Source: Minisyncoccota bacterium
GTDB taxonomy: Bacteria; Patescibacteriota; Minisyncoccia; Phycocordibacterales; UBA6899
Direction: 5' to 3'
NCBI GenBank assembly: GCA_035583355.1
Contig: DATEZQ010000004.1
Coordinates: forward strand, 1 to 58,340
Length of the DNA: 58,340 bases
Below are positions 14,647-42,470 of the stretch, piece by piece. The notes under the pieces were generated by a model. That model was not told the origin of the DNA and searched no databases. It saw nothing but the letters and a program-made list of their open reading frames with translations. Numbering within the stretch: the stretch's first letter is position 1; every line of letters begins with the position of its first letter. The translations under genes and the position numbers were made by a program.

Positions 14647-14667
14647 AAACCAGCGCCGCTGGTTTTT
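14645..14667. terminator. Bidirectional terminator shared by convergent genes
   Basis: aaaaaccagc-gcc-gctggttttt. It overlaps both stop codons (14644-14646 and 14666-14668). Confidence 0.8.
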
Positions 14668-14965
14668 AAAATCCTCCCCTATGTCTCTCTTCGATTTTAA
14701 TCTTTGACTTCTGCACCGCTGCATCAAGGTCGATATTATAATTATTAGCCACTGTAGCAAGAGCAATAAGCACATCCCCCATTTCCCCCTCAAGATCCAT
14801 GACCTCATCCTTCCGATCTTTATACCCGGAACTTTTGCGAATAGCCTCCGCCATTTCGCCGAGCTCCTCAAAAAGATAAAGTAATTGCAAGTGTGGATCT
14901 GGCCTTGTATTTGAGTGCTGCTCCCAGTCCGTCCGCACCCACTGTTGTAATTCAAGTATTTGCAT
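14666..14965 (-). CDS. MazG-like nucleotide pyrophosphohydrolase
   Basis: EELGEMAEA and EMGDVL helix motifs. The longer track ORF (to 14992) would run into the upstream terminator hairpin, so ATG 14965 is preferred. Confidence 0.7.
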   Translation of the reverse strand: MQILELQQWVRTDWEQHSNTRPDPHLQLLYLFEELGEMAEAIRKSSGYKDRKDEVMDLEGEMGDVLIALATVANNYNIDLDAAVQKSKIKIEERHRGGF

Positions 14966-14971
14966 ATCATT

Positions 14972-14977
14972 AGTATA
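14972..14977 (-). promoter_or_regulatory. -10 TATACT, 6 nt before ATG 14965 (leaderless)
   Basis: The minus strand reads TTGTATACT-aatgat-ATG, immediately after the terminator. Confidence 0.5.
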
Positions 14978-14981
14978 CAAC

Positions 14982-15002
14982 AAAAGCCCCATAGGGGCTT
15001 TT
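14982..15002 (-). terminator. Intrinsic terminator closing the surface-protein locus
   Basis: aaaagcccc-ata-ggggctttt. On the minus strand it is followed by TTTTGTTGT. Confidence 0.8.
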
Positions 15003-15008
15003 GTTGTA

Positions 15009-15914
15009 TTAACGACGCATTATCTGTCTCATCACCTTCTTAAATTGCACCACCGCTCCATGAGCAACACCTGCACGCAAAAGGTGAAAAATAAATGCAA
15101 AAATCACGAATAAACTTATCCACTCCCCCTGTCGCCAAATGGGAACATTTATCCTAGGCGCGACAACCACCTCTCTGACATTGCCCTCTTTATCAATCGC
15201 TCGAATATATATAGGTCTATCAACTTTTTGCCGCTTTAGAAGATATGGGCTCTCTGCCCGAACATACAAACCAAACAACCCTTCGCGAATCTCATAATGG
15301 TCCACACCCAATCCTTTATCCTGCGTCTTGAATACGATGAAGTGCTTACCATCATAGATATTATGATCGTTTGCAATGATCGGAGTAAAGTCCTCTGGCG
15401 GCTCTACATCTAGTTGAGTCATCTTTGCCGGAGCAAGGCTCTCTCCTTCAACAACAAGCGAGAGCGCCTGCATATCGAGCGCACTTGGACTACCACTGCC
15501 ATCATTTTTATAGAGGCGTGCCCCACGAATAGAAATCGTATGTGTACCGACTTTCTTTGCCTTCATACGCAAGGCGAAGAGTTTCTCATTGTTTCCCTGG
15601 AATCCCCCCGGAGTCATTCCTGCAAATGTAATGACCCCAGGTGACACCTCATGGGGAGACTCAATCCAGAAGTTAATTCCTGAATTACCCTCATAAATAT
15701 CCATGCTCTCAAAAACTGTAGCATCATAAATGATCTGACCATCTACTGCGTTTGAATCCTCGCCCGCATCAAGCAACACAGTAAGGATGAACTCGTCACG
15801 GTGACGCACTACGGGGCTTTCTTGCCTTAAATGTAATGCATAAGCAAAAACATATCGAGGAGCGAAGGCTATGATTAGCGCAAGGAGCACATATATGTAT
15901 TTTTTGGTTTTCAT
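15009..15914 (-). CDS. Cohesin-like domain protein with signal peptide and C-terminal TM anchor
   Basis: MKTKKYIYVLLALIIAFAP signal. The block FILTVLLDAGEDSNAVDGQIIYDATVFE...GVITFAGMTPGG...KLFALRMKAKKVGTHTISI matches the cohesin beta-sandwich pattern. C-terminal helix WISLFVIFAFIFHLL. The track ORF extends to 15971 and would overlap the upstream gene. Confidence 0.5.
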   Translation of the reverse strand: MKTKKYIYVLLALIIAFAPRYVFAYALHLRQESPVVRHRDEFILTVLLDAGEDSNAVDGQIIYDATVFESMDIYEGNSGINFWIESPHEVSPGVITFAGMTPGGFQGNNEKLFALRMKAKKVGTHTISIRGARLYKNDGSGSPSALDMQALSLVVEGESLAPAKMTQLDVEPPEDFTPIIANDHNIYDGKHFIVFKTQDKGLGVDHYEIREGLFGLYVRAESPYLLKRQKVDRPIYIRAIDKEGNVREVVVAPRINVPIWRQGEWISLFVIFAFIFHLLRAGVAHGAVVQFKKVMRQIMRR

Positions 15915-15930
15915 ATATTGATGGATTTGA

Positions 15931-16962
15931 TTATGCAGTCCAGCGATACACAAGAATACTGAAATCCACAATATTCACCACTCCATCTTTATTGAGATCA
16001 ACACTTGCGGGTGGAATAGGATTTTTATACCAATAGAGCAAAATGGATAGGTCGACTAGATTCACTCTGCCATCACAGTTCACGTCAGAAACTTTACACC
16101 CTTTCGTATCTTCGAGTACTTGCGCACTTATAGCCGACGAAAAAATTGAGAAATCGACACTACGAGAAAGGCCGCTAAGATCTTGCCCCTCTATTGTGTA
16201 GAGTCGTAGCACATGTGCACCCGGAAAAAGTAGGGATGTATCAATTTTTACTGCATATTTTCCCTGCTTATCAACGCGTGTCTTCAAATCTACGGCGGTG
16301 TTGCTATCAATCAAAGCATAAAGCAACGCGCCAGGTATGGCATTGCCCGAGAGTATCAATGGCTCTTTCTTTTTCACATGCTCTGACGCAGGATACAGTG
16401 ACGGTGCGATAGCAATGCCACTCACCTTAAGTACTGCTCCACTACCTACATTCACTGGAAATCCCATAAGTGGAGATTGAACACCTTTTTCATCAAGAGC
16501 ATATGCTGCGAAGATATAGTTTCCGCTGGAAAGCCCTGAAATAGTCGTCTGAAAAACACCCTCGGCGTTCGTTATTGTTGTTGCAATCGATTGACCATCC
16601 TTAAGCAGGGTCACTGAACTACCAGGATATGACCTCCCCATAAATGCTACTGTTGCGGTGGTAACCACGGGAGCGCCACCGCCTCCTCCACCACCACCTC
16701 CCGATGGAGCATGTGTTGAGCAGTTCAAAGTATTCTGAGTACACACACTCGTACACGTGAGGATACCCGACGCATATCCCAAAGAGGCGCATGTAGCGCC
16801 TCCGAGGTTTGCTCCATCGCACTGTTCTCCTGGCCCAATAACACTATCACCGCAGCCAGGTACGGTTGCGGTGATCTGTACTGCTATCGCCTGACCAATA
16901 CGAGGAGTGATGAGCGTAACGAGAAGAGCAAGAAACAAGAATGTTCTTGATCGGTTATCCAT
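15931..16962 (-). CDS. Secreted Cys-rich-repeat / poly-Gly / Ig-like protein with C-terminal dockerin repeats
   Basis: Signal peptide. CGDSVIGPGEQCDGANLGGATC...C...C resembles the myxococcal-type Cys-rich repeat. G9 linker. Two dockerin segments: DVNCDGRVNLVDLSILL and DLNKDGVVNIVDFSILV. Confidence 0.65.
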   Translation of the reverse strand: MDNRSRTFLFLALLVTLITPRIGQAIAVQITATVPGCGDSVIGPGEQCDGANLGGATCASLGYASGILTCTSVCTQNTLNCSTHAPSGGGGGGGGGAPVVTTATVAFMGRSYPGSSVTLLKDGQSIATTITNAEGVFQTTISGLSSGNYIFAAYALDEKGVQSPLMGFPVNVGSGAVLKVSGIAIAPSLYPASEHVKKKEPLILSGNAIPGALLYALIDSNTAVDLKTRVDKQGKYAVKIDTSLLFPGAHVLRLYTIEGQDLSGLSRSVDFSIFSSAISAQVLEDTKGCKVSDVNCDGRVNLVDLSILLYWYKNPIPPASVDLNKDGVVNIVDFSILVYRWTA

Positions 16963-16986
16963 TATATTTGCAAAAACAAAACAGTA

Positions 16987-17937
16987 CTATTTTTGATTTG
17001 TCGCTGCAGCAATGATGTTTTTCTTATACTGCAGAAGAATAAACCTGAGCACAACAATCACCAGAAATACACAAACCATGAGCTGCCAAGGAAATACAAA
17101 GAAATGATATGTAGCTACGGCTGTTTGCGGCACGTCTCCCCACGCGAGGCTCAAATCGGCGGTGTACCATCCAAAATGAAAATCAGAAAGCTGTAATAAA
17201 GCAAGACTGAAGAATCCTCTCTCCTCATTTGAGACTTCATTGCCCCAGGCTACCGAGAAACGACGAGGACTTCCTGGGAGCACGCTACCCTCTCGCTCAT
17301 TAGCAAGCAACTTTGCAGTAATACTGCGGAAGGAATTTTTAATAACAATATCTCCCTTCGGCACCACACGATCCCCACCCTTATTATTGAAAACATATTC
17401 AAGTGTCACAGGAAGCATTGTAAAGAAGCGTTGCGCCCCCTTACCACTGAAGCCAGAGAGTCCTGCTGCTTGCTCGACATCACCGTTGACTGAGAGAAGC
17501 ACGAGTACTCCAACTTTTCCTCCGATAGAAACATCTCCAGGGTTACCTGATTTTGGTTGCTCGGTTCCGAAGAATTCTGCAGCGAAATACCCTCCTGGCT
17601 TAGCAGACTGTGGAATAGTGATTGTGAATGGAACCTTCACGCGCTCACCAGTGGCAATTTCGATTTTTGCATCTGAAGTCATCCAGGTCGCAAGACCATC
17701 CTTATTTCCAATGAAATATGGAGCCCCGGTATCTCCTCGTGATTCAAAGTTTTCGAACGACGTATAGAATGTCTTTCCTTCCTGCTGCTCATTATAGATT
17801 TCCATCTCCCCCTTGAGAGTCTGTCCAGGATTACCACGAATTTCAATGCGCGTCGGCGAGACGGTCAGTGCGGAGGCAGATGCAGCAAAACTAAATGCTG
17901 CAATCAGCGCTATGGTTGTAATAACTGTTGTTCTCAT
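16987..17937 (-). CDS. DUF916/DUF3324-like (WxL-interacting-protein-like) surface protein with C-terminal TM anchor
   Basis: Signal peptide. LTVSPTRIEIRGNPGQTLKGEMEIYN...VKVPFTITIPQSAKPGGYFAAEFF is the pattern I associate with DUF916. C-terminal helix LMVCVFLVIVVLRFILL followed by a basic tail. Confidence 0.5.
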   Translation of the reverse strand: MRTTVITTIALIAAFSFAASASALTVSPTRIEIRGNPGQTLKGEMEIYNEQQEGKTFYTSFENFESRGDTGAPYFIGNKDGLATWMTSDAKIEIATGERVKVPFTITIPQSAKPGGYFAAEFFGTEQPKSGNPGDVSIGGKVGVLVLLSVNGDVEQAAGLSGFSGKGAQRFFTMLPVTLEYVFNNKGGDRVVPKGDIVIKNSFRSITAKLLANEREGSVLPGSPRRFSVAWGNEVSNEERGFFSLALLQLSDFHFGWYTADLSLAWGDVPQTAVATYHFFVFPWQLMVCVFLVIVVLRFILLQYKKNIIAAATNQK

Positions 17938-17972
17938 AAATTTATGCTGGTGTGCGTGTTAAGCGTAGTGAA

Positions 17973-19025
17973 CTAGAAGTTCGCCGTTGCTGCGTAGTTG
18001 ATGGTAGATGTATATGTTCCCGCTGGTGTCGTTGCATCGATATTTGCGATGTAGTGGATACCGTATGTTGCTGCAGCAACCGATCCTGCAGTTGATGCGA
18101 TAGTGTCACCTGAGTTGAATGCCCATGTTGCACCACCTGCGTAAGGAGCGGCAACGGTACCCGTACCACTGTTGAGTGTTGCACGGAGACCGAACTGCTT
18201 GGTGTTTGGAGCAGATGCGACAGCAGCAGCACCGATACCTGTGATGGTATTTGCACCGTAGGTCAACGTTGAACCATTGACCGTAAGTGTGTAGCCATTG
18301 GCAGCATTGGTCCCCACTGAGACCGTATGTGCCTCAGCGTCTGCAGCAACTCCGCCTGATGTATTCGCAAAGCGAGCGTTAGCAGTCGTGAGTGTTCCGA
18401 AACCAACAGCATTCTGACTTAAGCTGAATGTCAAAGACTGTGGAACAATTGCAGAAACCTGAACAGTATCATCATTCAAAATGTTCACGGTTGTAGTACC
18501 CACGTCACCGAATGTGCCACCGACTGCAACAGTATACGATGCTGCGGTGCCTGGATTGATCGCATTAGTGTTCGGAAGAGTGATGATCACCTTATCATTT
18601 GGTGCAAGTGCTGCAGTACCAACACCATCGGTTGGAGTAGTGAGCGTCAGTACGTTATTCTGAGCACCCGAGAATACTGCTCCCCATGCGGTAGCACTTG
18701 GAGCTGCAAGCAAAGGCTCTGAAGCCTCGAGTCCTGTCGATGCACCATGAGTAAAGGTGATACCAGTGATTGCTTTGCCGGTAAAGTTAAAGCCTGGATT
18801 CTGGTATGTAATCACAATCGTCTGTCCTGCCACGGCCTCACCAGAAGGTGTAGTGAACTTAATTGTACTTGTTGCGGTCGTGCTTATCTTTGCTGAAGAA
18901 AGAGCAACCGACGTCGACAAAAGTTGTGCCGCCGACGCAATATATGGTGCCCCTGCAAAAGAGAGCAACACAGCCACAAGGACAATTGGGCTTACGAGGG
19001 CTTTATTGAATTTATTTATTTTCAT
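17973..19025 (-). CDS. Secreted fibre-subunit candidate sharing a C-terminal ~157-aa domain with the 1278-aa protein
   Basis: Signal MKINKFNKALVSPIVLVAVLLSFAGAPYIASA. G/T/A-rich beta-type sequence. The C-terminal domain (17976-18446) aligns with 19195-19674. It has its own promoter and is preceded by a terminator. The track ORF extends to 19082. Confidence 0.6.
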   Translation of the reverse strand: MKINKFNKALVSPIVLVAVLLSFAGAPYIASAAQLLSTSVALSSAKISTTATSTIKFTTPSGEAVAGQTIVITYQNPGFNFTGKAITGITFTHGASTGLEASEPLLAAPSATAWGAVFSGAQNNVLTLTTPTDGVGTAALAPNDKVIITLPNTNAINPGTAASYTVAVGGTFGDVGTTTVNILNDDTVQVSAIVPQSLTFSLSQNAVGFGTLTTANARFANTSGGVAADAEAHTVSVGTNAANGYTLTVNGSTLTYGANTITGIGAAAVASAPNTKQFGLRATLNSGTGTVAAPYAGGATWAFNSGDTIASTAGSVAAATYGIHYIANIDATTPAGTYTSTINYAATANF

Positions 19026-19082
19026 CTTTGTTGTGCAAATATAATTGATATGCAAATGCAAAGCATTTGTATCTATAGGCAT

Positions 19083-19091
19083 ATTGTAACA
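19083..19091 (-). promoter_or_regulatory. Extended -10 TGTTACAAT for the fibre-subunit gene
   Basis: The + strand reads attgtaaca, 57 nt upstream of ATG 19025. The leader contains the hairpin caaatgc-tt-gcatttg. Confidence 0.5.
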
Positions 19092-19171
19092 CGTAACCCA
19101 TCACAAATTACAAAGCTATCCCCAGAAATATGGATATTTCGTAAATGTTACACCTATCCTTATACAACCAA

Positions 19172-19191
19172 AAACACCCACCGGGGTGTTT
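19172..19191 (-). terminator. Intrinsic terminator after the 1278-aa gene
   Basis: aacaccc-accg-ggggtgtt. On the minus strand it is followed by TTTTTGGTTG. It abuts the TAG at 19192-19194. Confidence 0.7.
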
Positions 19192-22100
19192 CTAGAAAGA
19201 CGCAGTGATCGTATAGGTTACATTCGCAGCATACGCACCAGCCTGCGACTGGGTAGAGATATTCCCGAGATAGCGCACTGCATATGTTGTTGGCGTAGAA
19301 CCACTGCTTACCATTGCAACGGCATCAGGAAAGGCGGTCGTATTGAACGCATACCCTGCCCCATCATATGGAGCAGAAACGACACCCATTCCGCCCGTCG
19401 CGGTCATGCGCATACCAAACTGCTCTGTCCCTGGAATTGATGCAGTATTCACAGCACCAATAGCGGCAATGGTCGAGCTGCCCGCAGAAAGCGTATTTCC
19501 GTTTATAGAGAGCACATAGCCATTGGAGGAGTTGGTCGCTGCTGTGATCGTATGCGCCACAGCCTCAGTTGTGGAGCCGAGGCCATCTGCGGTTGCAAAG
19601 CGCTCGCCACTGGCATTAAGTGACCCAAACCCAGCGGTATTATTCGAAATACTGAACGTAAGCGACTGCGATACGGGCGGTACTTCAATCCACTGGAATG
19701 ACATCATCGCAAAATCCCACTGCGCCGTCATCGCACTCGCTCCTGACGCAGAGGTGCGCAAACGCATATTCAATATCGCTCCGACTGTGTCAAGGTGATC
19801 GCCGACACTCGTCGACCAACCCGCAGCTCCACCCGAAGCAACGGTAGCCATGGAAATATTGTCTGTATATATTAGTGCGGTCGTCGCACCGGCGCCAACC
19901 GGAGACCACCCTCCAGTAACATTCGTTGACCCACCGAAATCCCTTATCCCTGCAATGACCGTACCAACCGTACCCGACATATGTCGGCTTGCGAAGAAGA
20001 TGCCGGCTGCTGCCGTATTATTGGGGAGCGACGCACCGAAATCTACATTCGCTGCTACTGCATATCCTGCAGTCGTATTATTATTGCTATCGTATCCGTA
20101 TGTTGCAAACGCTTGAGTATTCGACTTCGCTGCTCCAAGTAAATTCCATGTATTGCTCGTACCCGTCATGTCCAGGTCACTCGTATTAGCAACCGTACCT
20201 GCAGCATTTGAACCGAAAGTGATGTTTCCAACACCATCGGTATTTGTCGTTCCTATCATGACATACGCCATATTTAGTCGAATTGCTACAGTACTGTTCG
20301 AGAGACCGTGCCATCCAACACGAATCTCACCATTTGAAATATAGTTGCTCATGGTGATATTCGACTTTGACCATGCGTTAGTAGCAGCAGTAGTGGAGCA
20401 CGCAATAGAAGTAGTAGTGAGATCCTCCCACAATGTGGTGTTGTAATTATAGATCTTCGGCCTAATCGTCGGGCCAGTTGCTGAGCAAGAGTAATTCGCG
20501 CGATAAAGGATTGTATTTGCTCCTGGATAGGTTTTTACATTTTTGTATGAAACATAAAAGTCTGAAACCGTACTTGCGGTACCAGGTACTTGGAAGTATG
20601 CAGTATCTGCGCCAGTTTGTCCGGCTCCACCCATATTCGCCATCGAGTAGTCCCCCGTGATTGTTCCTCCAGAAATCTGAGTTGCACTCGAACCAGAATA
20701 CACTGGATTGACCACGACAAACGCACGAAGATAATCAATATTCACTAATGATGTGGTATTTGTTGTTGAGTAGTAGCGCACGCGGATTGTATTTGATCCG
20801 TTGATGAAGTTTGCAAGTGGAGTTGCGATTGACGTTGTTGCACTCGAGCTCCAATACCCATCATATATCTCCCAGTCGTATGCGGTTGCGGTCACTGTAG
20901 TGATTGCTGCGTCATTCAGATTCAAATTTCTCCACCCTCCTCCTGTGCATTGCGCATCTGCGGCACTATTCACTCCGACCGAAGACACCCAGTCGCATAC
21001 CTGCACGAGCGTCGAAGGCGCCGTCGCATCAAGATCAAACTCTGTTTGGAGAATAATCTTATTTGCACCATTGAGACGCACATCTCCTATATCGAGATAC
21101 GCGTTGTATCCTGACGCAGATGATGTAACTCCGAAATGTAAATTATCATCAGCAATGGCCCCGCGCCAATCTCCCATATTCACTCCTTCTGTCGCAGGAG
21201 CCGTGAGGCCAAGAATTGCAGGAGCAGTACCCGTCACGATACCACCGCCAGAAACACCATAGCGATACGATTCCGATGGGTGTATCGGTTGCTCTATCCA
21301 CTGAATCGACATCATAGCAAAATCCCACTGTGCTGTATTCACACTCGCCGCGGACACCGAGGTACGTAAACGCATATTCATCATATTTGTTACCGAGTCC
21401 GTGAAATCTTTTGGGCTCGTCGACCATCCTGTCGCACCGCCAGAGGCAACCGTTGCGACGCTGATATTATCCGTGTACACAAGTGCGGTAGTTCCCACTG
21501 CACCAACTGCAGACCAACCTCCGGTTACACTTGTACCTGCTCCGTAATCCATAACTCCCACCTGCACCGTCCCTGCAGTGCCAGACATATGCCGAGATGC
21601 GAAAAATACACCAGTGATTGCACCACCCTCTGGTATCGTCGTATTGAAATTCACATTTGCAGCCGCAGCATAGCCTGCGGTAGTATTATTGTTTCCATCA
21701 TACGCGTACGATGCAAACGCCTGAGTATTCGATTTTGCAGCACCAAGAATACTCCATGTACTTGCGGTACCGGTCATGTCGAGCGAAGCAGTATCTGATA
21801 CAGAGCCTGCTGCACTCGAACCGAAGGTGACTGCTGCACCTTCTCCAGTGTTGACGGTACCGATCATGATGTATTGCATATCAAGACGCAAAGACACAGT
21901 ACTATTAGAGAGCCCATACCAGCCTACGCGAATTTCACCACCAGAAATATAATCATTAATATTTATATTACTTTTCGCCCATGCATTTGTCGCATCTGCT
22001 GTTGCACATGCAATAGAGGCGGTCGTGAGATCCTCCCAAAGCTCAGTTGCAAAGTTATAAATCTTTGGACGTCGTGTTGGACCCGTCGCTGAACAGGAAT

Positions 22101-23028
22101 ACTCCGCACGCACGAGAATCGTATTTGCTCCGGTATACGTCTTTACATTCTTGTACGATAGATAGAAATCCGAAACGCTTCCTGCTGTTCCTGGAACTTG
22201 AAAGTATGCATTATCCGATCCCAACTGCCCCGCACCTCCGATATTCGCCATTGCATAATCTCCAACGATCGTACCGCCTGAGAGCTGCGTCGCACCGGAA
22301 GCAGAGTAAACAGGATTCACCACCGCAAATACGCGGAGATAATCAATATTCACAAGTGAAGTTGTGTTTGTTGTCGAGTAATAACGCACACGGATCGTAT
22401 TTGAACCGTTCACAAAATTAGTGAGGGGCGTATTAATTGAACTCGTTGCGCTTGCACCCCAGTATCCATTATAGACCTGCCAATCATATGCAGTTCCCGT
22501 GGTCGGTGCTATTGTCGCGTCATTTAAATTTAAATTTCTCCACCCTCCCCCAGTACACTGCGCGTCCGCCGCACCATTGACGCCAACTGAAGAAACCCAG
22601 TCACAAACCTGGACAAGCGTTGCAGGAGCAGTAGCATCGAGATCTAACTCAGTCTCGAAGATCAATTTATTCGCACCATTGAGCACAACATTACCCAGAT
22701 CAAGATATGCATTATAACCACTTGCGGTAGAAGAAAAACCCCAATGCAAGTTATCATCCGCAACAGTACCCTTCCAATCACCCATATTTACACCCTCAGC
22801 AGTAGGGGCGGTAAGACCGAGAATAGGTGCTGCAGTACCCGTCACTAGCCCACCACCCGAGGGATCAAACTGATATGATGCACGAGCGATTTTCGTGGTC
22901 TTTGGGAATACGCCAGCTCTAGAAAAGAGCGGGATATAACCTGTAGCAAAAAGGACGCTCGCCACGATGAGTATGACTGCGAGACTTTTCTTGCCCGATA
23001 TGATTATATGTTCATAAAGTCTTCCCAT
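19192..23028 (-). CDS. 1278-aa anchored/secreted adhesin-like protein: two ~536-aa repeats plus a fibre-type C-terminal domain
   Basis: N-terminal hydrophobic helix (LAVILIVASVLFATGYIPLF). Two tandem repeats with conserved Cys pairs (VCDWVSSVGVN..AADAQCTGGGW; YSCSATGPT..SIAC). The C-terminal 160 aa are homologous to the C-terminus of the 17973..19025 product. Confidence 0.7.
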   Translation of the reverse strand: MGRLYEHIIISGKKSLAVILIVASVLFATGYIPLFSRAGVFPKTTKIARASYQFDPSGGGLVTGTAAPILGLTAPTAEGVNMGDWKGTVADDNLHWGFSSTASGYNAYLDLGNVVLNGANKLIFETELDLDATAPATLVQVCDWVSSVGVNGAADAQCTGGGWRNLNLNDATIAPTTGTAYDWQVYNGYWGASATSSINTPLTNFVNGSNTIRVRYYSTTNTTSLVNIDYLRVFAVVNPVYSASGATQLSGGTIVGDYAMANIGGAGQLGSDNAYFQVPGTAGSVSDFYLSYKNVKTYTGANTILVRAEYSCSATGPTRRPKIYNFATELWEDLTTASIACATADATNAWAKSNININDYISGGEIRVGWYGLSNSTVSLRLDMQYIMIGTVNTGEGAAVTFGSSAAGSVSDTASLDMTGTASTWSILGAAKSNTQAFASYAYDGNNNTTAGYAAAANVNFNTTIPEGGAITGVFFASRHMSGTAGTVQVGVMDYGAGTSVTGGWSAVGAVGTTALVYTDNISVATVASGGATGWSTSPKDFTDSVTNMMNMRLRTSVSAASVNTAQWDFAMMSIQWIEQPIHPSESYRYGVSGGGIVTGTAPAILGLTAPATEGVNMGDWRGAIADDNLHFGVTSSASGYNAYLDIGDVRLNGANKIILQTEFDLDATAPSTLVQVCDWVSSVGVNSAADAQCTGGGWRNLNLNDAAITTVTATAYDWEIYDGYWSSSATTSIATPLANFINGSNTIRVRYYSTTNTTSLVNIDYLRAFVVVNPVYSGSSATQISGGTITGDYSMANMGGAGQTGADTAYFQVPGTASTVSDFYVSYKNVKTYPGANTILYRANYSCSATGPTIRPKIYNYNTTLWEDLTTTSIACSTTAATNAWSKSNITMSNYISNGEIRVGWHGLSNSTVAIRLNMAYVMIGTTNTDGVGNITFGSNAAGTVANTSDLDMTGTSNTWNLLGAAKSNTQAFATYGYDSNNNTTAGYAVAANVDFGASLPNNTAAAGIFFASRHMSGTVGTVIAGIRDFGGSTNVTGGWSPVGAGATTALIYTDNISMATVASGGAAGWSTSVGDHLDTVGAILNMRLRTSASGASAMTAQWDFAMMSFQWIEVPPVSQSLTFSISNNTAGFGSLNASGERFATADGLGSTTEAVAHTITAATNSSNGYVLSINGNTLSAGSSTIAAIGAVNTASIPGTEQFGMRMTATGGMGVVSAPYDGAGYAFNTTAFPDAVAMVSSGSTPTTYAVRYLGNISTQSQAGAYAANVTYTITASF
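19675..22875. repeat. Intragenic tandem duplication, 2 x ~1.6 kb (about 19675-21267 and 21268-22875)
   Basis: Each copy starts Y(Q/R)(F/Y)..SGGG..VTGTA and ends QWDFAMMS(I/F)QWIE. The period is 1608 nt. The copies are diverged, about 70-80% aa identity by eye. Confidence 0.85.
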
Positions 23029-23037
23029 GATCTACTT

Positions 23038-24774
23038 CTATGGAAGCATACCTTCCATATCTTCAAAGATCGGAGTAGTCGCTCCATTCTCTAAGATAAA
23101 TTTTTTCAAGCCGCTCGATTCATCACGAAATTCCACTGCGACCGATCCATCCTCATTCGGAGACGATGACTCAAATGAGTTGCTCGAAATATTATATTTC
23201 CATAATGCACCATCCTTCCCAAGCCAAAATATGTTCCCAAAATCGAAGAATATCTTCGAATCAGCACTCACCTGCTTGCGATCCGCAATAAATGACCAAC
23301 GCTTCTCAGTATTACTATGTAGCCATAGCTCTACAATACGACTTTCATCGAACGCTGCAGTGGTCGTAGTTGCCTCGGCGAGCACCACAACATCTGAACT
23401 TGATGCAGAGGTAGTCGCAAAATTATAGATTGGAAGATCATTCAAAATCGGCCTACTCACAAGAACTGCGACTCCATCACTGTATGCTACCTCACGAAGA
23501 TAGGTATCCCCTCGTAAGAGACTAGGTGCGGGATGAGGATCATCCCCAACCCTTTCGTACTCTACAGCGAGCCAGACTGCATCGAGGTAGATAATTGGCA
23601 TCACCGCATCAAGCGTTGGTACACTCCGCACACCGATTTTGAGGTTTGACACATCTTCCCAGCCAACGATTTCATCAACAGGAATCTCAAATTCCTTGGT
23701 ATCAAATTCATCATCCGCAACATAACCAAGGCTCTTCCAATTCATGTCATCAAAAGAATAGATGGCCTCAACAAGACCGTATGGTGTAGTCGATGCGATA
23801 CTGGTACTAGTACTTGCACCAGAACTTGTTGCGAACCAAGATGCGTCTACAGTAGTCGTTGCAGGAGGTGGAATTTCTAAAGATGAAGTCGCAAGTGTTC
23901 CCGTTGCTTCTGTCTGTGTAACAGCAGGCTCCACAACGGCAACTGTATTACTTGCACTAAATACTTCCTCTGCAAATGCAGAATGTATGAAATAATTAAT
24001 AAGAGATAACGGCTCCGAAGTAGCAGGAGCAGGTGGAGAAACAGGAGGAGGCGCATCTGTCGGAGATGACGACGATTCAGGTTCACTTGGGGTAATAGGC
24101 ACAGCTGAAGCTTCAACTGTAGTAGGAGGAGTACTTGAAGCAGTAGAGTCACTCTCTGGAGGCGCTGAAGCGTCTACTACCTCACTCACTGTCGTCGAAG
24201 CTGCAATCTCTTGTGTACTTACTGGAGTCGTTGAAGAGGAAACATCCTGAGTACTCGTTGAAGTGATAGCGGTACTCGAAGCAACTGTAGACGTCGAGCC
24301 TTGTTCAATCAACTCACTTGCACTCACCCCGTCACTGCGTGGCGCAGATACAGTAGATTCAGGAGGAGTTATGCTTGTAGTGTCCGGAATACCACTCGCT
24401 GCTTCTTCAATTCGTGCTTCCTCTATCGCTCGAGCCTCGGATGGATATGTTGCCGCCCAAGAGAACTTGGCAAACACACGCTTTGGCGCAGTATTCACAC
24501 TCACCTCGCCATGAAAATCCCCACAACTGATCTGTGACTGCTGCCCATTGCGAAGAATCGCAGAATTTTGTTCGTTAAATTGTGCAACCTGAGGCCCAAG
24601 TACGTCAGGAGAACCTGTTGCATACTCAGCATGCTCCCAGCCACCTTCACAATGAGAGGCATATAGGTTATATGTATCAGCATGCGCAGAATTAGGGTGC
24701 CGAAAAACAGACACGCCAATAATAGAGAGGATTAATATTACCGAAAGAAAGGTTCTCAAGGAAACCCGTTGCAT
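23038..24774 (-). CDS. Secreted protein with a long Ser/Thr/Pro-rich linker, unknown function
   Basis: Signal MQRVSLRTFLSVILILSIIGVSVF..AHA. A folded N-domain with 2 Cys, about 200 aa of S/T/P/E low complexity, then a C-terminal folded region. The stop lies 9 nt before the next start. The track ORF uses TTG at 24834. Confidence 0.6.
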   Translation of the reverse strand: MQRVSLRTFLSVILILSIIGVSVFRHPNSAHADTYNLYASHCEGGWEHAEYATGSPDVLGPQVAQFNEQNSAILRNGQQSQISCGDFHGEVSVNTAPKRVFAKFSWAATYPSEARAIEEARIEEAASGIPDTTSITPPESTVSAPRSDGVSASELIEQGSTSTVASSTAITSTSTQDVSSSTTPVSTQEIAASTTVSEVVDASAPPESDSTASSTPPTTVEASAVPITPSEPESSSSPTDAPPPVSPPAPATSEPLSLINYFIHSAFAEEVFSASNTVAVVEPAVTQTEATGTLATSSLEIPPPATTTVDASWFATSSGASTSTSIASTTPYGLVEAIYSFDDMNWKSLGYVADDEFDTKEFEIPVDEIVGWEDVSNLKIGVRSVPTLDAVMPIIYLDAVWLAVEYERVGDDPHPAPSLLRGDTYLREVAYSDGVAVLVSRPILNDLPIYNFATTSASSSDVVVLAEATTTTAAFDESRIVELWLHSNTEKRWSFIADRKQVSADSKIFFDFGNIFWLGKDGALWKYNISSNSFESSSPNEDGSVAVEFRDESSGLKKFILENGATTPIFEDMEGMLP

Positions 24775-24780
24775 ATTTCG

Positions 24781-24789
24781 ATTATAGCA
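24781..24789 (-). promoter_or_regulatory. Extended -10 TGCTATAAT, 6 nt before ATG 24774 (leaderless locus promoter)
   Basis: The minus strand reads cttGCTATAAT-cgaaat-ATG. The upstream gene's terminator precedes it. Confidence 0.65.
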
Positions 24790-24834
24790 AGTTTGTTGCA
24801 AATGTGACAGAACTACACTATCAAAATCTATCAA

Positions 24835-24860
24835 AAAAGTAGCCCAGTTTGGCTACTTTT
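24835..24860 (-). terminator. Intrinsic terminator
   Basis: aaaagtagcc-cagttt-ggctactttt. It includes the TAG of the 24853 gene. A T-run follows on the minus strand. Confidence 0.75.
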
Positions 24861-25191
24861 CCACGCTCGAATCATTTTTCTTTGGTGGCCCCCACTGCCA
24901 ACGCGGCCTTTCTCCTTTCTTGTATGCAATAACAAGCAGAAGAACGGTCAGTACCAAAATCGGTAATGCAAATGTTAGGACATTTGTGCCAGAATCGGGA
25001 TTCCCTGGGATATCTTTTTCACTAAGCGATACTATTCCTAGTACGAGCACAAGATAAAGAGCAATAACGCTCCACCCCTGCCAGCGGACTGGAGTCCAAC
25101 CCCAGCCATAGAGTTTTGCCTTAAACCAATAATTATTTGGATTATCATGGAGATAATCTGAATGTGCTTTGAAATACTCCTTCAGGTTCAT
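24853..25191 (-). CDS. Small membrane protein (two TM helices, Trp-rich)
   Basis: WGWTPVRWQGWSVIALYLVLVLGIV and LTFALPILVLTVLLLVIAY helices. The track ORF extends to 25212 (TTG). Confidence 0.55.
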   Translation of the reverse strand: MNLKEYFKAHSDYLHDNPNNYWFKAKLYGWGWTPVRWQGWSVIALYLVLVLGIVSLSEKDIPGNPDSGTNVLTFALPILVLTVLLLVIAYKKGERPRWQWGPPKKNDSSVEK

Positions 25192-41745: not shown

Positions 41746-41757
41746 TAATGTTTTCTG

Positions 41758-42070
41758 CTCCGGCGGCAGGATTCGAACCTGCGACCAATACGTTACTCAT
41801 GTTCACTGCTTTCGTAGTGGGAGGACTATATCATCACCCTTCTTTCGAGTGGGGTGCGAGGCGCTTCCCGTCCTAGATAAATCTAAGATAGTACTCCTTG
41901 CGGATAGTCTCTGAACCTTCGATGTGATTACTCACAAAGCTTGGCTGCTGATCGCCCTCGTCTTTCTCGTTAGGGTTTCCAGCAATTCACCTCGTTATTC
42001 ACCATTTCATTACTGAGATGGGCTGCGTTTAACGCCACAGCGTACTGCTCTACCGCTGAGCTACACCGGA
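41758..42070 (-). tRNA. tRNA-Asn(GUU) interrupted by a group I intron (exons 42070-42037 and 41795-41758)
   Basis: The spliced 72-nt product has acceptor TCCGGTG/CGCCGGA, D arm GCTC-AGCGGTA-GAGC, anticodon stem GTACG/CGTAT, loop CTGTTAA, T arm GCAGG-TTCGAAT-CCTGC and discriminator G. CCA is not encoded. Confidence 0.85.
41796..42036 (-). ncRNA. Group I self-splicing intron (IC3-like), 241 nt, in the anticodon loop between positions 35 and 36
   Basis: Core elements GGTTCAGAGACTATCCG and GATGATATAGTCCTC (P7 GACTAT/ATAGTC), plus GAAACCCTAA and GCCAAGC. In P1, exon GCUGU pairs with intron GCAGC, with U-G at the splice site. In P10, intron CGUUA pairs with exon-2 UAACG. The terminal nucleotide is G. 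Confidence 0.85.
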
Positions 42071-42143
42071 ATACACATAAAACACTCATTCCAAAAGAGG
42101 AATGTGTTCAGAGAATACCAAAAAATGCTCATATTTGCAAGTC

Positions 42144-42470
42144 CTATTCTCCGGTCCCAAACTGAGCATTTTCGGCATGTAATTCCCTATGGCAATTCGC
42201 GCAAAGTAGGATACATTTATCAGCCTCAGCCCTTAATTTATCCCATGATCGCGTAATACCACCTACTCCGAAACCGAAGTCTTTCTTTGACTCATCGAGG
42301 TGGTGCAGATCAAAGACTGCGGGACATGACGAATACCCACAGCGCGAACACTTCCCTCCCTTATACTGGATAAGCATGAGCTTCAGTTTTCTTCGTCTCT
42401 CTGACACGGCGCGCTTTAGATACTCACGCCTGTCCGCATACGTACGCTTCTCTTTTTTAGTGACTGGCAT
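42144..42470 (-). CDS. Small HNH endonuclease
   Basis: CSRCGY...HLHHLD...CANCH zinc-finger/HNH layout, 108 aa, basic N-terminus. Ends 73 nt upstream of the intron-containing tRNA. Confidence 0.8.
   Translation of the reverse strand: MPVTKKEKRTYADRREYLKRAVSERRRKLKLMLIQYKGGKCSRCGYSSCPAVFDLHHLDESKKDFGFGVGGITRSWDKLRAEADKCILLCANCHRELHAENAQFGTGE

Follow-up and report, generated by a model that had tools for sequence, protein, structure and literature searches.

We analysed a window of 58,340 nucleotides, the whole of the stretch considered here, from a Minisyncoccota bacterium (contig DATEZQ010000004.1, assembly GCA_035583355.1) of the candidate phyla radiation (CPR). At 15009-24774 it carries six consecutive minus-strand genes, here called G1 to G6, which we propose to encode the subunits, assembly partner and base of a surface pilus. 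Much of bacterial diversity belongs to the CPR, whose members live attached to hosts.

G1 (23038-24774) encodes a secreted accessory protein of 578 amino acids (aa). G2 (19192-23028, 1278 aa) is a putative tip adhesin in which a signal or anchor segment is followed by two 536-aa modules and, at the C-terminus, by an acceptor domain of the Pam pilin family. The putative major (shaft) pilin G3 (17973-19025, 350 aa) has, after its signal peptide, a beta-sandwich of about 150 aa as N-terminal domain, then a candidate donor-strand linker and a Pam C-terminal acceptor domain. G4 (16987-17937, 316 aa) encodes a membrane-anchored chaperone-like protein of the WxLIP/PapD type with two immunoglobulin (Ig) domains. 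The layout of G5 (15931-16962, 343 aa), the proposed base adaptor, was read from the sequence and runs from a signal peptide and a donor-strand-like N-terminus through a Cys-rich module, poly-Gly and two Ig-like domains to a dockerin. The proposed membrane anchor, G6 (15009-15914, 301 aa), combines a signal peptide with a cohesin, an Ig-like domain and, at the C-terminus, a transmembrane (TM) helix.

The preliminary description of this DNA had listed six consecutive genes for secreted or anchored proteins without enzymatic motifs, and this stands. The open reading frames (ORFs) were found where it had placed them, each protein has a hydrophobic N-terminal signal segment, G4 and G6 have an additional C-terminal TM segment, and Pfam and NCBIfam searches with the six proteins gave no enzyme family match. 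The locus L064, on a groundwater-metagenome contig that is 83-89% related to the window, has the same gene order and flanks, with independent gene calls of 562, 1284, 350, 316, 345 and 302 aa. The ratio of non-synonymous to synonymous changes (pN/pS) against L064 is 0.12-0.54 across all six genes, which indicates purifying selection, and hence all six are real coding genes.

Homologues of G3 numbered 532 at E<=1e-3 among the scored candidates, the best 120 having 49-89% identity. A pattern scan of species-representative genomes gave 63 loci, and their gene order was established by comparing every ORF in them with the six window proteins by BLAST. The order [G1], a protein with only the C-terminal domain in common, pilin, G4, G5, G6 and [a second cohesin protein], with the bracketed genes optional, recurs in about 50 of these 63 loci, from different CPR species. 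Together with L064 this shows the gene order to be conserved in relatives, a point on which the preliminary description had staked its claim. In this clade the operon regularly includes the cohesin-dockerin pair. The length of the protein encoded upstream of the pilin varies between 249 and 2095 aa across the loci, and only the C-terminal domain is common to all. A second genome scan with distant pilins, aimed at M. amalyticus, mostly recovered the same loci.

Many of the metagenome-assembled genomes carrying these loci have labels of the Parcubacteria lineage (Parcubacteria, Paceibacterota, Nomurabacteria, Magasanikbacteria, Harrisonbacteria). The commonest label, 'uncultured Candidatus Saccharibacteria', is that of a single bulk assembly set and could be a generic one. 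Those homologues of G4 and of the G2 module that carry names, from Kaiser-, Taylor-, Wolfe-, Ryan-, Falkow- and Doudnabacteria, likewise indicate the Parcubacteria lineage.

Pilin domain, proposed donor strand and putative tip modules

The C-terminal regions of G3 (residues 194-350) and G2 (residues 1119-1278; 19195-19674 on the minus strand, ending ...TYTITASF) are 45% identical (E=5e-34), which bears out the claim that a small and a giant protein have a C-terminal domain of about 160 aa in common. Both exceed the curated cut-off of 55 bits for the NCBIfam model NF058581 (CPR_Pam_pilin_C, 'Pam pilus system pilin subunit'), with 85.3 bits for G3 and 64.6 bits for G2 (residues 1152-1278). Judged by this family membership, the locus is of the Pam pilus kind at the level of its pilins. 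The term 'undescribed' in the preliminary description therefore falls, since the domain in question belongs to a CPR pilus already solved by cryo-EM, the very kind of hit it had named as speaking against it; its idea of a cell-surface fibre or attachment apparatus, and the anatomy it gave, hold up.

The Pam filaments of Ca. Mycosynbacter amalyticus, formed by the pilins PamA and PamB, have been solved by cryo-EM (Troman et al., bioRxiv 10.64898/2026.03.03.709456). Each of these pilins has a beta-sandwich as its N-terminal domain and a truncated Ig-like domain at its C-terminus, with one linker strand between them, and in the polymer the linker enters the C-terminal domain of the next subunit. 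The operon further encodes the TM-anchored chaperone-like proteins PamC and PamD, a linker-less tip protein PamT and PamR, an RbmA-like terminator or anchor with an N-terminal strand and a TM helix (10.64898/2026.03.03.709456).

About 60 syntenic loci entered the motif analysis. In 50 pilins of the G3 class the 10 residues directly before 'QSLTFSIS', at which the C-terminal domain starts, form the motif DDQVxV(S/T)ATVP. In G3 itself this linker reads DTVQVSAIVP (residues 186-195; 18441-18470, minus strand). In the AlphaFold2 (AF2) monomer model of G3 the N-terminal domain has about 10 strands with predicted local distance difference test (pLDDT) values of 75-90, and the linker is coil. G3 also weakly matches the PamT model, in an alignment that begins at residue 199, past the linker. 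Because the linker is conserved, is coil in the monomer model and lies ahead of the start of the PamT-model alignment, we take it as the putative donor strand.

A position-specific scoring matrix (PSSM) was built from the 50 G3-class linkers and scanned over the remaining ORFs of the loci. The best score in G2 was -4.7, and the median best score of 51 proteins that have only the C-terminal domain in common was -3.5. The C-terminal domain of G2 directly follows the strand 'WDFAMMSFQWIEV'; an identical strand closes repeat 1, so that this strand belongs to the fold of the module. The motif reappears in G5 homologues right after the signal peptide, as ITVEITATVPGCGD, and the mature N-terminus of the window's G5, IAVQITATVP (residues 26-35; 16858-16887, minus strand), resembles the pilin donor strand. 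With pilins and other ORFs bearing the C-terminal domain set aside, the comparison covered 2471 ORFs, and a score of at least 7 bits was reached by 24 of 54 G5-class ORFs as against 10 of 2417 others (Fisher 4e-35). All but one of the 24 G5-class matches (23/24) lie at positions 25-47.

From this distribution we read three types of subunit, namely acceptor only (G2, the putative tip), donor plus acceptor (G3, the putative shaft) and donor only (G5, the putative base). G2 is read as the tip since it has the acceptor domain and no donor strand.

The remainder of G2 consists largely of repeat 1 (residues 51-586; 21271-22878) and repeat 2 (residues 587-1122; 19663-21270), both on the minus strand. 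Residues 51-581 and 587-1117 are 74% identical over 531 aa without a gap, as expected from the giant protein with two repeats of about 536 aa that had been noticed earlier. The module is mostly found as a single copy, in CPR proteins some 740 aa long that consist of signal, module and C-terminal domain, and its tandem duplication was found in the window, L005, L022 and L064, with full-length G2 orthologues in L005 and L022 at 57-58% identity. Of its three submodules, A and B share homology by hhalign (probability 96.9%). Pfam, NCBIfam and PDB searches gave no placement of the module, which the preliminary description had not been able to place by eye either. Sub-threshold matches were to GH114_assoc, DUF642 and Exop_C; the GH114_assoc or galactose-binding-like matches occurred in 6 of 20 module members (best E 6e-4), below the family thresholds.

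Sequence searches with G2, G3 and G4 against PDB chains returned nothing useful in a copy evidently without the PamA/PamB entries 25PZ and 25QA, and family profiles of G4, the 536-aa module and the C-terminal domain had no match in the PDB.

The G4 protein and the cohesin-dockerin pair

The AF2 model of G4, built with 38 homologues, has a pLDDT of 83.9 and comprises two beta-sandwich domains and a TM helix (residues 284-315; 16993-17088, minus strand); its loop at residues 125-139 is poorly ordered and passes into a long strand (140-150). Foldseek searches of the PDB with this model gave as top matches the Enterococcus faecium WxLIP structures 9i1y (3.6e-11) and 9i25, the latter with a long WxL protein (2.8e-10), followed by Vibrio cholerae RbmA (about 1e-10) and the chaperones CfaA, CsuC and DraB (about 1e-7). 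At the sequence level G4 scored 13.8 bits on PF06030 against a cut-off of 27.3, with 8 of 38 homologues matching weakly, and PF11797 (DUF3324) was not detected in G4. The G4 family comprises 8172 clusters at 50% identity (E<=1e-3). Pfam searches with ten divergent members, the weakest among the best 150 of these 8172, listed PF06030 for eight, and one of them, P0409, which lies in a pilin-like operon, reached 31.0 bits and so passed the cut-off of 27.3. Based on the model and on its counterparts in other systems we read G4 as a probable membrane-anchored chaperone.

A divergent G4-type member is encoded in the operon at 3860-10319 of L065, in which pilin-like proteins end in ...YRVTGNF or ...YRVTGSF and a 1084-aa neighbour has a G3-type N-terminal domain; hence further variants of the operon exist.

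In WxL clusters a small and a large protein with a common C-terminal domain are accompanied by a TM-anchored two-Ig partner that is predicted to complete this domain by a beta-strand (PMC10599100). The preliminary description had seen Csc/WxL-like logic in the window and a DUF916/DUF3324-like character in G4. For G4 this analogy is grounded structurally, and probably also evolutionarily, given the WxLIP match and the score of P0409; the TM end and the cluster layout likewise stand. The DUF916 match of the G4 sequence is weak, the DUF3324 part found no support and the C-terminal domain common to G2 and G3 carries no WxL signal. Pfam searches with 46 C-terminal domains at E<=1 gave no WxL match, only lone chance-level matches to Fimbrial and SCPU, and thus kinship between the Pam C-terminal domain and the WxL domain is not shown. 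The W-x-L motifs are indeed absent, with no match to PF13731 in G2, G3 or the 46 domains and with C-termini reading ...ATANF and ...ITASF. It was also right to judge the cohesin-dockerin pair foreign to Csc clusters. WxL is not mentioned in the Pam paper (10.64898/2026.03.03.709456).

The dockerin of G5 (residues 292-343; 15934-16089, minus strand) has two Ca-binding repeats, in agreement with the earlier reading, and scored 38.2 bits on Dockerin_1 (PF00404) against a cut-off of 22.9 (E=1.7e-9). This family was also matched by 35 of 40 G5 homologues, the family profile matches solved cellulosomal dockerins at 6e-6, and G5 in addition matches Big_6 (32.1 bits). The cohesin of G6 occupies approximately residues 25-165 (15420-15842) and its TM helix approximately residues 265-289 (15048-15122), both on the minus strand. 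The TM end claimed for G6 was found, and its cohesin-like character is supported at the level of the family: 11 of 41 homologues match PF00963 (best 2.1e-9), and the family profile matches solved cohesins over about 60 residues only (Ruminococcus flavefaciens 5aoz, 4.6e-5). The window's protein itself, at 17.3 bits, stays under the cut-off of 24.1.

About 44 loci have a dockerin together with a cohesin, and L001, L006, L011, L017 and L037 have neither. The window has no single protein of the PamR type; here G5 bears the strand and G6 the TM helix. By analogy we read the two as a split PamR, in which the strand would cap the fibre and the dockerin would plug into the membrane-bound cohesin. Downstream of the chaperone gene, the position that PamR has, two distant loci (L056 and L060) encode a protein of about 260 aa that has the strand at its N-terminus and a TM helix at its C-terminus. 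Cohesin, dockerin and Parcubacteria are not mentioned in the Pam paper (10.64898/2026.03.03.709456), and a search of the literature turned up no account of dockerins in CPR pili.

Three further observations concern the base. The G5 homologue of L017 (7335-8363) has the strand N-terminus, the Cys-rich module, an Ig domain and a TM end, no dockerin and no cohesin gene after it; it looks like a natural fused version of the G5 plus G6 anchor. Residues 36-82 of the window's G5, directly after the strand, form a Cys-rich segment (CGDxxxxxxEQCD..., eight Cys) that resembles the 'Myxococcus cysteine-rich repeat' or DUF4215, and one homologue matches PF13948 at 8e-4. Its position suggests a disulphide-locked stopper beside the inserted strand. 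Most relatives have a seventh gene after G6 (L004 13884-14924, L005 13877-15652, L009 7049-8812 and about 40 other loci), which is absent from the window and L064. Its product, a second cohesin-like protein, combines Ig-like domains and a TM helix with a coiled-coil tail of about 75 aa on the cytoplasmic side, and might link the base of the pilus to the interior of the cell.

Assembly model and alternatives

Taking these features together, we consider it likely that the locus encodes a Pam-type pilus, that is, a Sec-exported fibre of CPR bacteria (Parcubacteria/Paceibacteria) polymerised by donor-strand exchange and fixed by a cohesin-dockerin base. All subunits would be exported by Sec, in keeping with the signal peptides seen in their sequences. 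Membrane-tethered G4 would then lend a beta-strand to the incomplete C-terminal Ig-like domain of each subunit, as its fold and the Pam and WxLIP precedents suggest. From the motif analysis G2, an acceptor without a donor, could stand only at the distal end, where its two 536-aa beta-sandwich modules would form a host-binding tip. G3, with donor and acceptor, would form the shaft; its family membership is established, and its polymerisation is predicted from PamA and PamB. G5, bearing a strand at its mature N-terminus and no acceptor, would cap the proximal end, and its dockerin would bind the cohesin of membrane-anchored G6 and so fix the fibre to the cell, a contact to which the identity and the co-occurrence of the two domains point.

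Several points weigh against this model. The strand insertions, the chaperone role of G4 and the contact between cohesin and dockerin are inferred from motif, fold, synteny and precedent. The C-terminal domain of the G3 model has a pLDDT of 30-45, so that the truncated-Ig fold is not confirmed by the model, and a Foldseek search with this model was uninformative; such low values would be expected of an incomplete fold. The N-terminal strand of the window's G5 scored 11.8 bits as against 22.2 bits for the G3 linker. G4 has no NCBIfam match and is likened to PamC and PamD by fold and layout. L023 and L028 have a dockerin-bearing G5 with no cohesin gene nearby, and L001, L006 and L011 have a short G5 with neither dockerin nor TM helix and no evident anchor. 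Finally, the model gives no role to G1, which is a conserved secreted accessory protein.

A different use of the same parts would be a non-filamentous complex of the WxL/Csc type, in which G4 permanently holds G3 and G2 by completing their C-terminal domains and G2 is a displayed binder of host or substrate. This would suit the top structural match of G4 to WxLIP, including the 9i25 complex with a long WxL protein, the G4-family member over the PF06030 cut-off, and the canonical cluster composition of a small protein, a large protein and a TM-anchored two-Ig partner. We nevertheless regard it as distinctly unlikely, as the C-terminal domain is of the Pam pilin family, members of which have been seen as filaments by cryo-EM, and PF13731 and W-x-L motifs are absent. 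Furthermore, a linker present in G3, missing from G2-like proteins and found again at the N-terminus of G5 matches the needs of an ordered polymer rather than those of a 1:1 complex.

Doubt may also be confined to the base. Cohesin-dockerin pairs have many non-cellulosomal surface functions, and G5 and G6 might be an independent pair of this kind that is merely co-transcribed, for example a short Ig-like stalk contacting the host or the cell's own envelope. The second cohesin protein of the relatives, with its cytoplasmic coiled-coil tail, and the dockerins of L023 and L028 without an adjacent cohesin gene fit such a pair. The pilin linker motif at the N-terminus of G5, however, is far beyond chance, G5 always follows the chaperone gene, and the same place is taken by a PamR-like protein with strand and TM helix in distant operons and by a TM-bearing G5 in L017; we think an independent pair unlikely. 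The presence of cohesin and dockerin, along with the weak GH114_assoc or galactose-binding-like matches of the G2 modules (6/20, best E 6e-4), could further be taken to mean a cellulosome- or S-layer-like scaffold for the capture of polysaccharide, with the G2 modules as carbohydrate-binding modules. As the locus has no enzymes and no further dockerin proteins, the module matches fall under the family thresholds, and the pilin domain and the chaperone-like gene would be left unexplained, this reading appears very improbable.

The proposed pilus resembles the Pam pilus of M. amalyticus and other CPR bacteria (NF058581, NF058579) in its pilin C-terminal family, its two-domain pilin with a conserved linker, its linker-less tip, its TM-anchored two-Ig chaperone-like protein, its export by Sec without usher or sortase and its restriction to CPR. 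It differs from the published system in a giant tip (1278 aa with a duplicated 536-aa module, as against the small PamT), a single WxLIP-like chaperone gene instead of PamC and PamD, a proposed base made of G5 (strand and dockerin) and G6 (cohesin and TM) instead of single-chain PamR, and a Parcubacteria/Paceibacteria host, a lineage not named in the Pam paper. There is also one shaft pilin here as against PamA, PamB and PamE.

With the WxL (Csc) clusters of Firmicutes (PMC10599100; 9i1y, 9i25) the locus has in common a small and a large secreted protein with the same C-terminal domain and a TM-anchored two-Ig partner predicted to complete that domain by a beta-strand; WxLIP is the best PDB match of G4, and P0409 is over the PF06030 cut-off. 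It differs in lacking a WxL domain, a W-x-L motif and an LPXTG protein (CscD), in its conserved polymerisation linker and cohesin-dockerin pair, and in its CPR rather than Firmicutes host.

The likeness to chaperone-usher pili (Pap, Fim, CFA/I, Csu) lies in donor-strand complementation and exchange, in the order of tip adhesin, shaft and terminator, in the two-Ig chaperone fold (CfaA, CsuC and DraB at about 1e-7) and in the donor strand of G5, an N-terminal extension. Their tip adhesins, too, combine an N-terminal binding domain with a C-terminal pilin domain, as in our model of the locus. In contrast to these systems, neither the locus nor its flanks encode anything usher-like, an outer membrane is lacking, the chaperone would be tethered to the membrane, and the shaft donor would be an internal linker. 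Pfam searches gave no match to PapD (PF00345/PF02753), PapD_N or Fimbrial for the locus proteins, and the likeness of G4 to the chaperones of these systems is one of fold only.

Cellulosomal anchoring, for instance of type II dockerins to SdbA, OlpB or Orf2p, is similar in that G5 has a type-I-like dockerin with two Ca-binding repeats, the G6 cohesin is cell-anchored and the two genes are adjacent. It differs in that the proposed cargo is the base of a pilus instead of a scaffold for enzymes, a C-terminal TM helix serves as the anchor in place of SLH (S-layer homology) domains or sortase, and enzymes are missing.

We tentatively link two proposals, giving the pair of them a little less than an even chance: that the strand-exchange pilus of Parcubacteria/Paceibacteria is fastened to the cell by a cohesin-dockerin plug, and that the Pam 'chaperones' are homologous to the WxLIP (DUF916) proteins of Firmicutes. 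If this is true, pilus anchoring would here be modular and non-covalent, of a sort that has not been described for any class of pilus; the plug could let fibres be shed or swapped, and it would have evolved by the splitting of a PamR-like anchor or, in L017, by its renewed fusion. A single ancient monoderm system of strand complementation would have Pam pili and the WxL/Csc clusters as its two branches, and WxL proteins may then polymerise too, or Pam subunits may form displayed complexes like those of WxL proteins. Such a tie between a strand-exchange pilus system and the WxL/Csc clusters of lactobacilli, enterococci and Listeria suggests work in tractable organisms.

The sole characterised Pam pilus comes from one cultured species of Saccharimonadia, and its core machinery now extends to Parcubacteria from groundwater and to over 60 further species-level genomes, with a different solution to anchoring proposed in the form of the cohesin-dockerin pair. 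The hypervariable tip proteins (250-2095 aa) are plausible determinants of host range. The three subunit types would also provide a sequence rule by which the order of subunits may be read from genomes (acceptor only, donor plus acceptor, donor only).

Transcription signals and flanking features

The promoter of G1 (24781-24810, minus strand) consists of a -35-like hexamer and an extended -10 element, TGCTATAAT, at 24781-24789, which is followed by 6 nt and the ATG at 24774. A consensus scan gave 10 of 12 matches plus the TG, and the element is also directly visible in the sequence. L064 keeps TGCTATAAT, the 6 nt and the ATG with a different spacer sequence, and this conservation of the -10 element and its spacing supports a leaderless or near-leaderless mRNA of G1, as had been claimed for 24781-24789. 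The terminator of the upstream gene, with a stem of 13 bp, lies at 24832-24863. After the stop codon of G6 the locus is closed by a terminator-like hairpin of 14 bp, ACAACAAAAGCCCC-TAT-GGGGCTTTTGTTGT, at 14977-15007 (minus strand; 14982-15002 in the preliminary description), which was missed by an automatic terminator scan and was read from the sequence.

Between G2 and G3 there is a spacer of 166 nt (19026-19191). A terminator- or attenuator-like hairpin with a T run (19165-19191, minus strand) stands directly 3' of the G2 stop codon. The minimum free energy fold of the intergenic RNA pairs positions 1-20, and the hairpin at the equivalent site of L064 differs in sequence with its pairing kept, which amounts to compensatory change. 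Downstream of it, a -10-like TGnTACAAT (19083-19091, minus strand) is conserved in L064 and is followed by a conserved leader of about 55 nt, of which about 35 nt with a small hairpin, AAATGCtttGCATTT, are fully conserved. Since the spacer holds the post-G2 hairpin, the conserved TGnTACAAT and the leader, G3 probably has its own promoter. The six genes are then probably not one simple transcription unit, and the arrangement suggests that the shaft pilin is expressed separately, probably at a higher level.

An alternative ATG for G3 at 19082 is absent from L064; this, together with the conserved leader, supports the ATG at 19025 as the start of G3. Extended versions of G3 (369 aa) and G1 (598 aa) were rejected, their upstream starts not being conserved in L064 and overlapping promoter elements.

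G1 has two conserved blocks (approximately residues 30-115 and 330-410) separated by a Ser/Thr/Pro-rich spacer and gave no Pfam or NCBIfam match. Its homologues head at least 14 syntenic loci, and its pN/pS against L064 is 0.42.

The flanking genes, of which ten were scanned, are unrelated housekeeping genes (RnfD/NAD-binding protein, ApbE, MazG, NTPase, ABC ATPase, P-type ATPase), and none of the ten corresponds to the ATP-synthase neighbourhood reported for pamA. A small gene for a MazG-type nucleotide pyrophosphohydrolase lies directly 3' of the operon in the window (14666-14965, minus strand) and in L064 (14049-14348). A MazE-like gene near the Pam operon has been noted (10.64898/2026.03.03.709456); the resemblance between the two neighbours is probably a coincidence.

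Elsewhere in the window, a minus-strand tRNA gene at 41757-42069, which ARAGORN missed, is interrupted by a full-length group I intron (RF00028, 67.3 bits, 41803-42072), the tRNA halves around it reading TCCGGTGTAGCTCAGCGGTAGAGCAG... and ...GGTTCGAATCCTGCCGCCGGAGCA. Upstream of the split tRNA gene an ORF of 108 aa (42144-42470, minus strand) contains an HNH-like CxxC...CANCHRELH motif and, on the basis of this motif, probably encodes a homing endonuclease.

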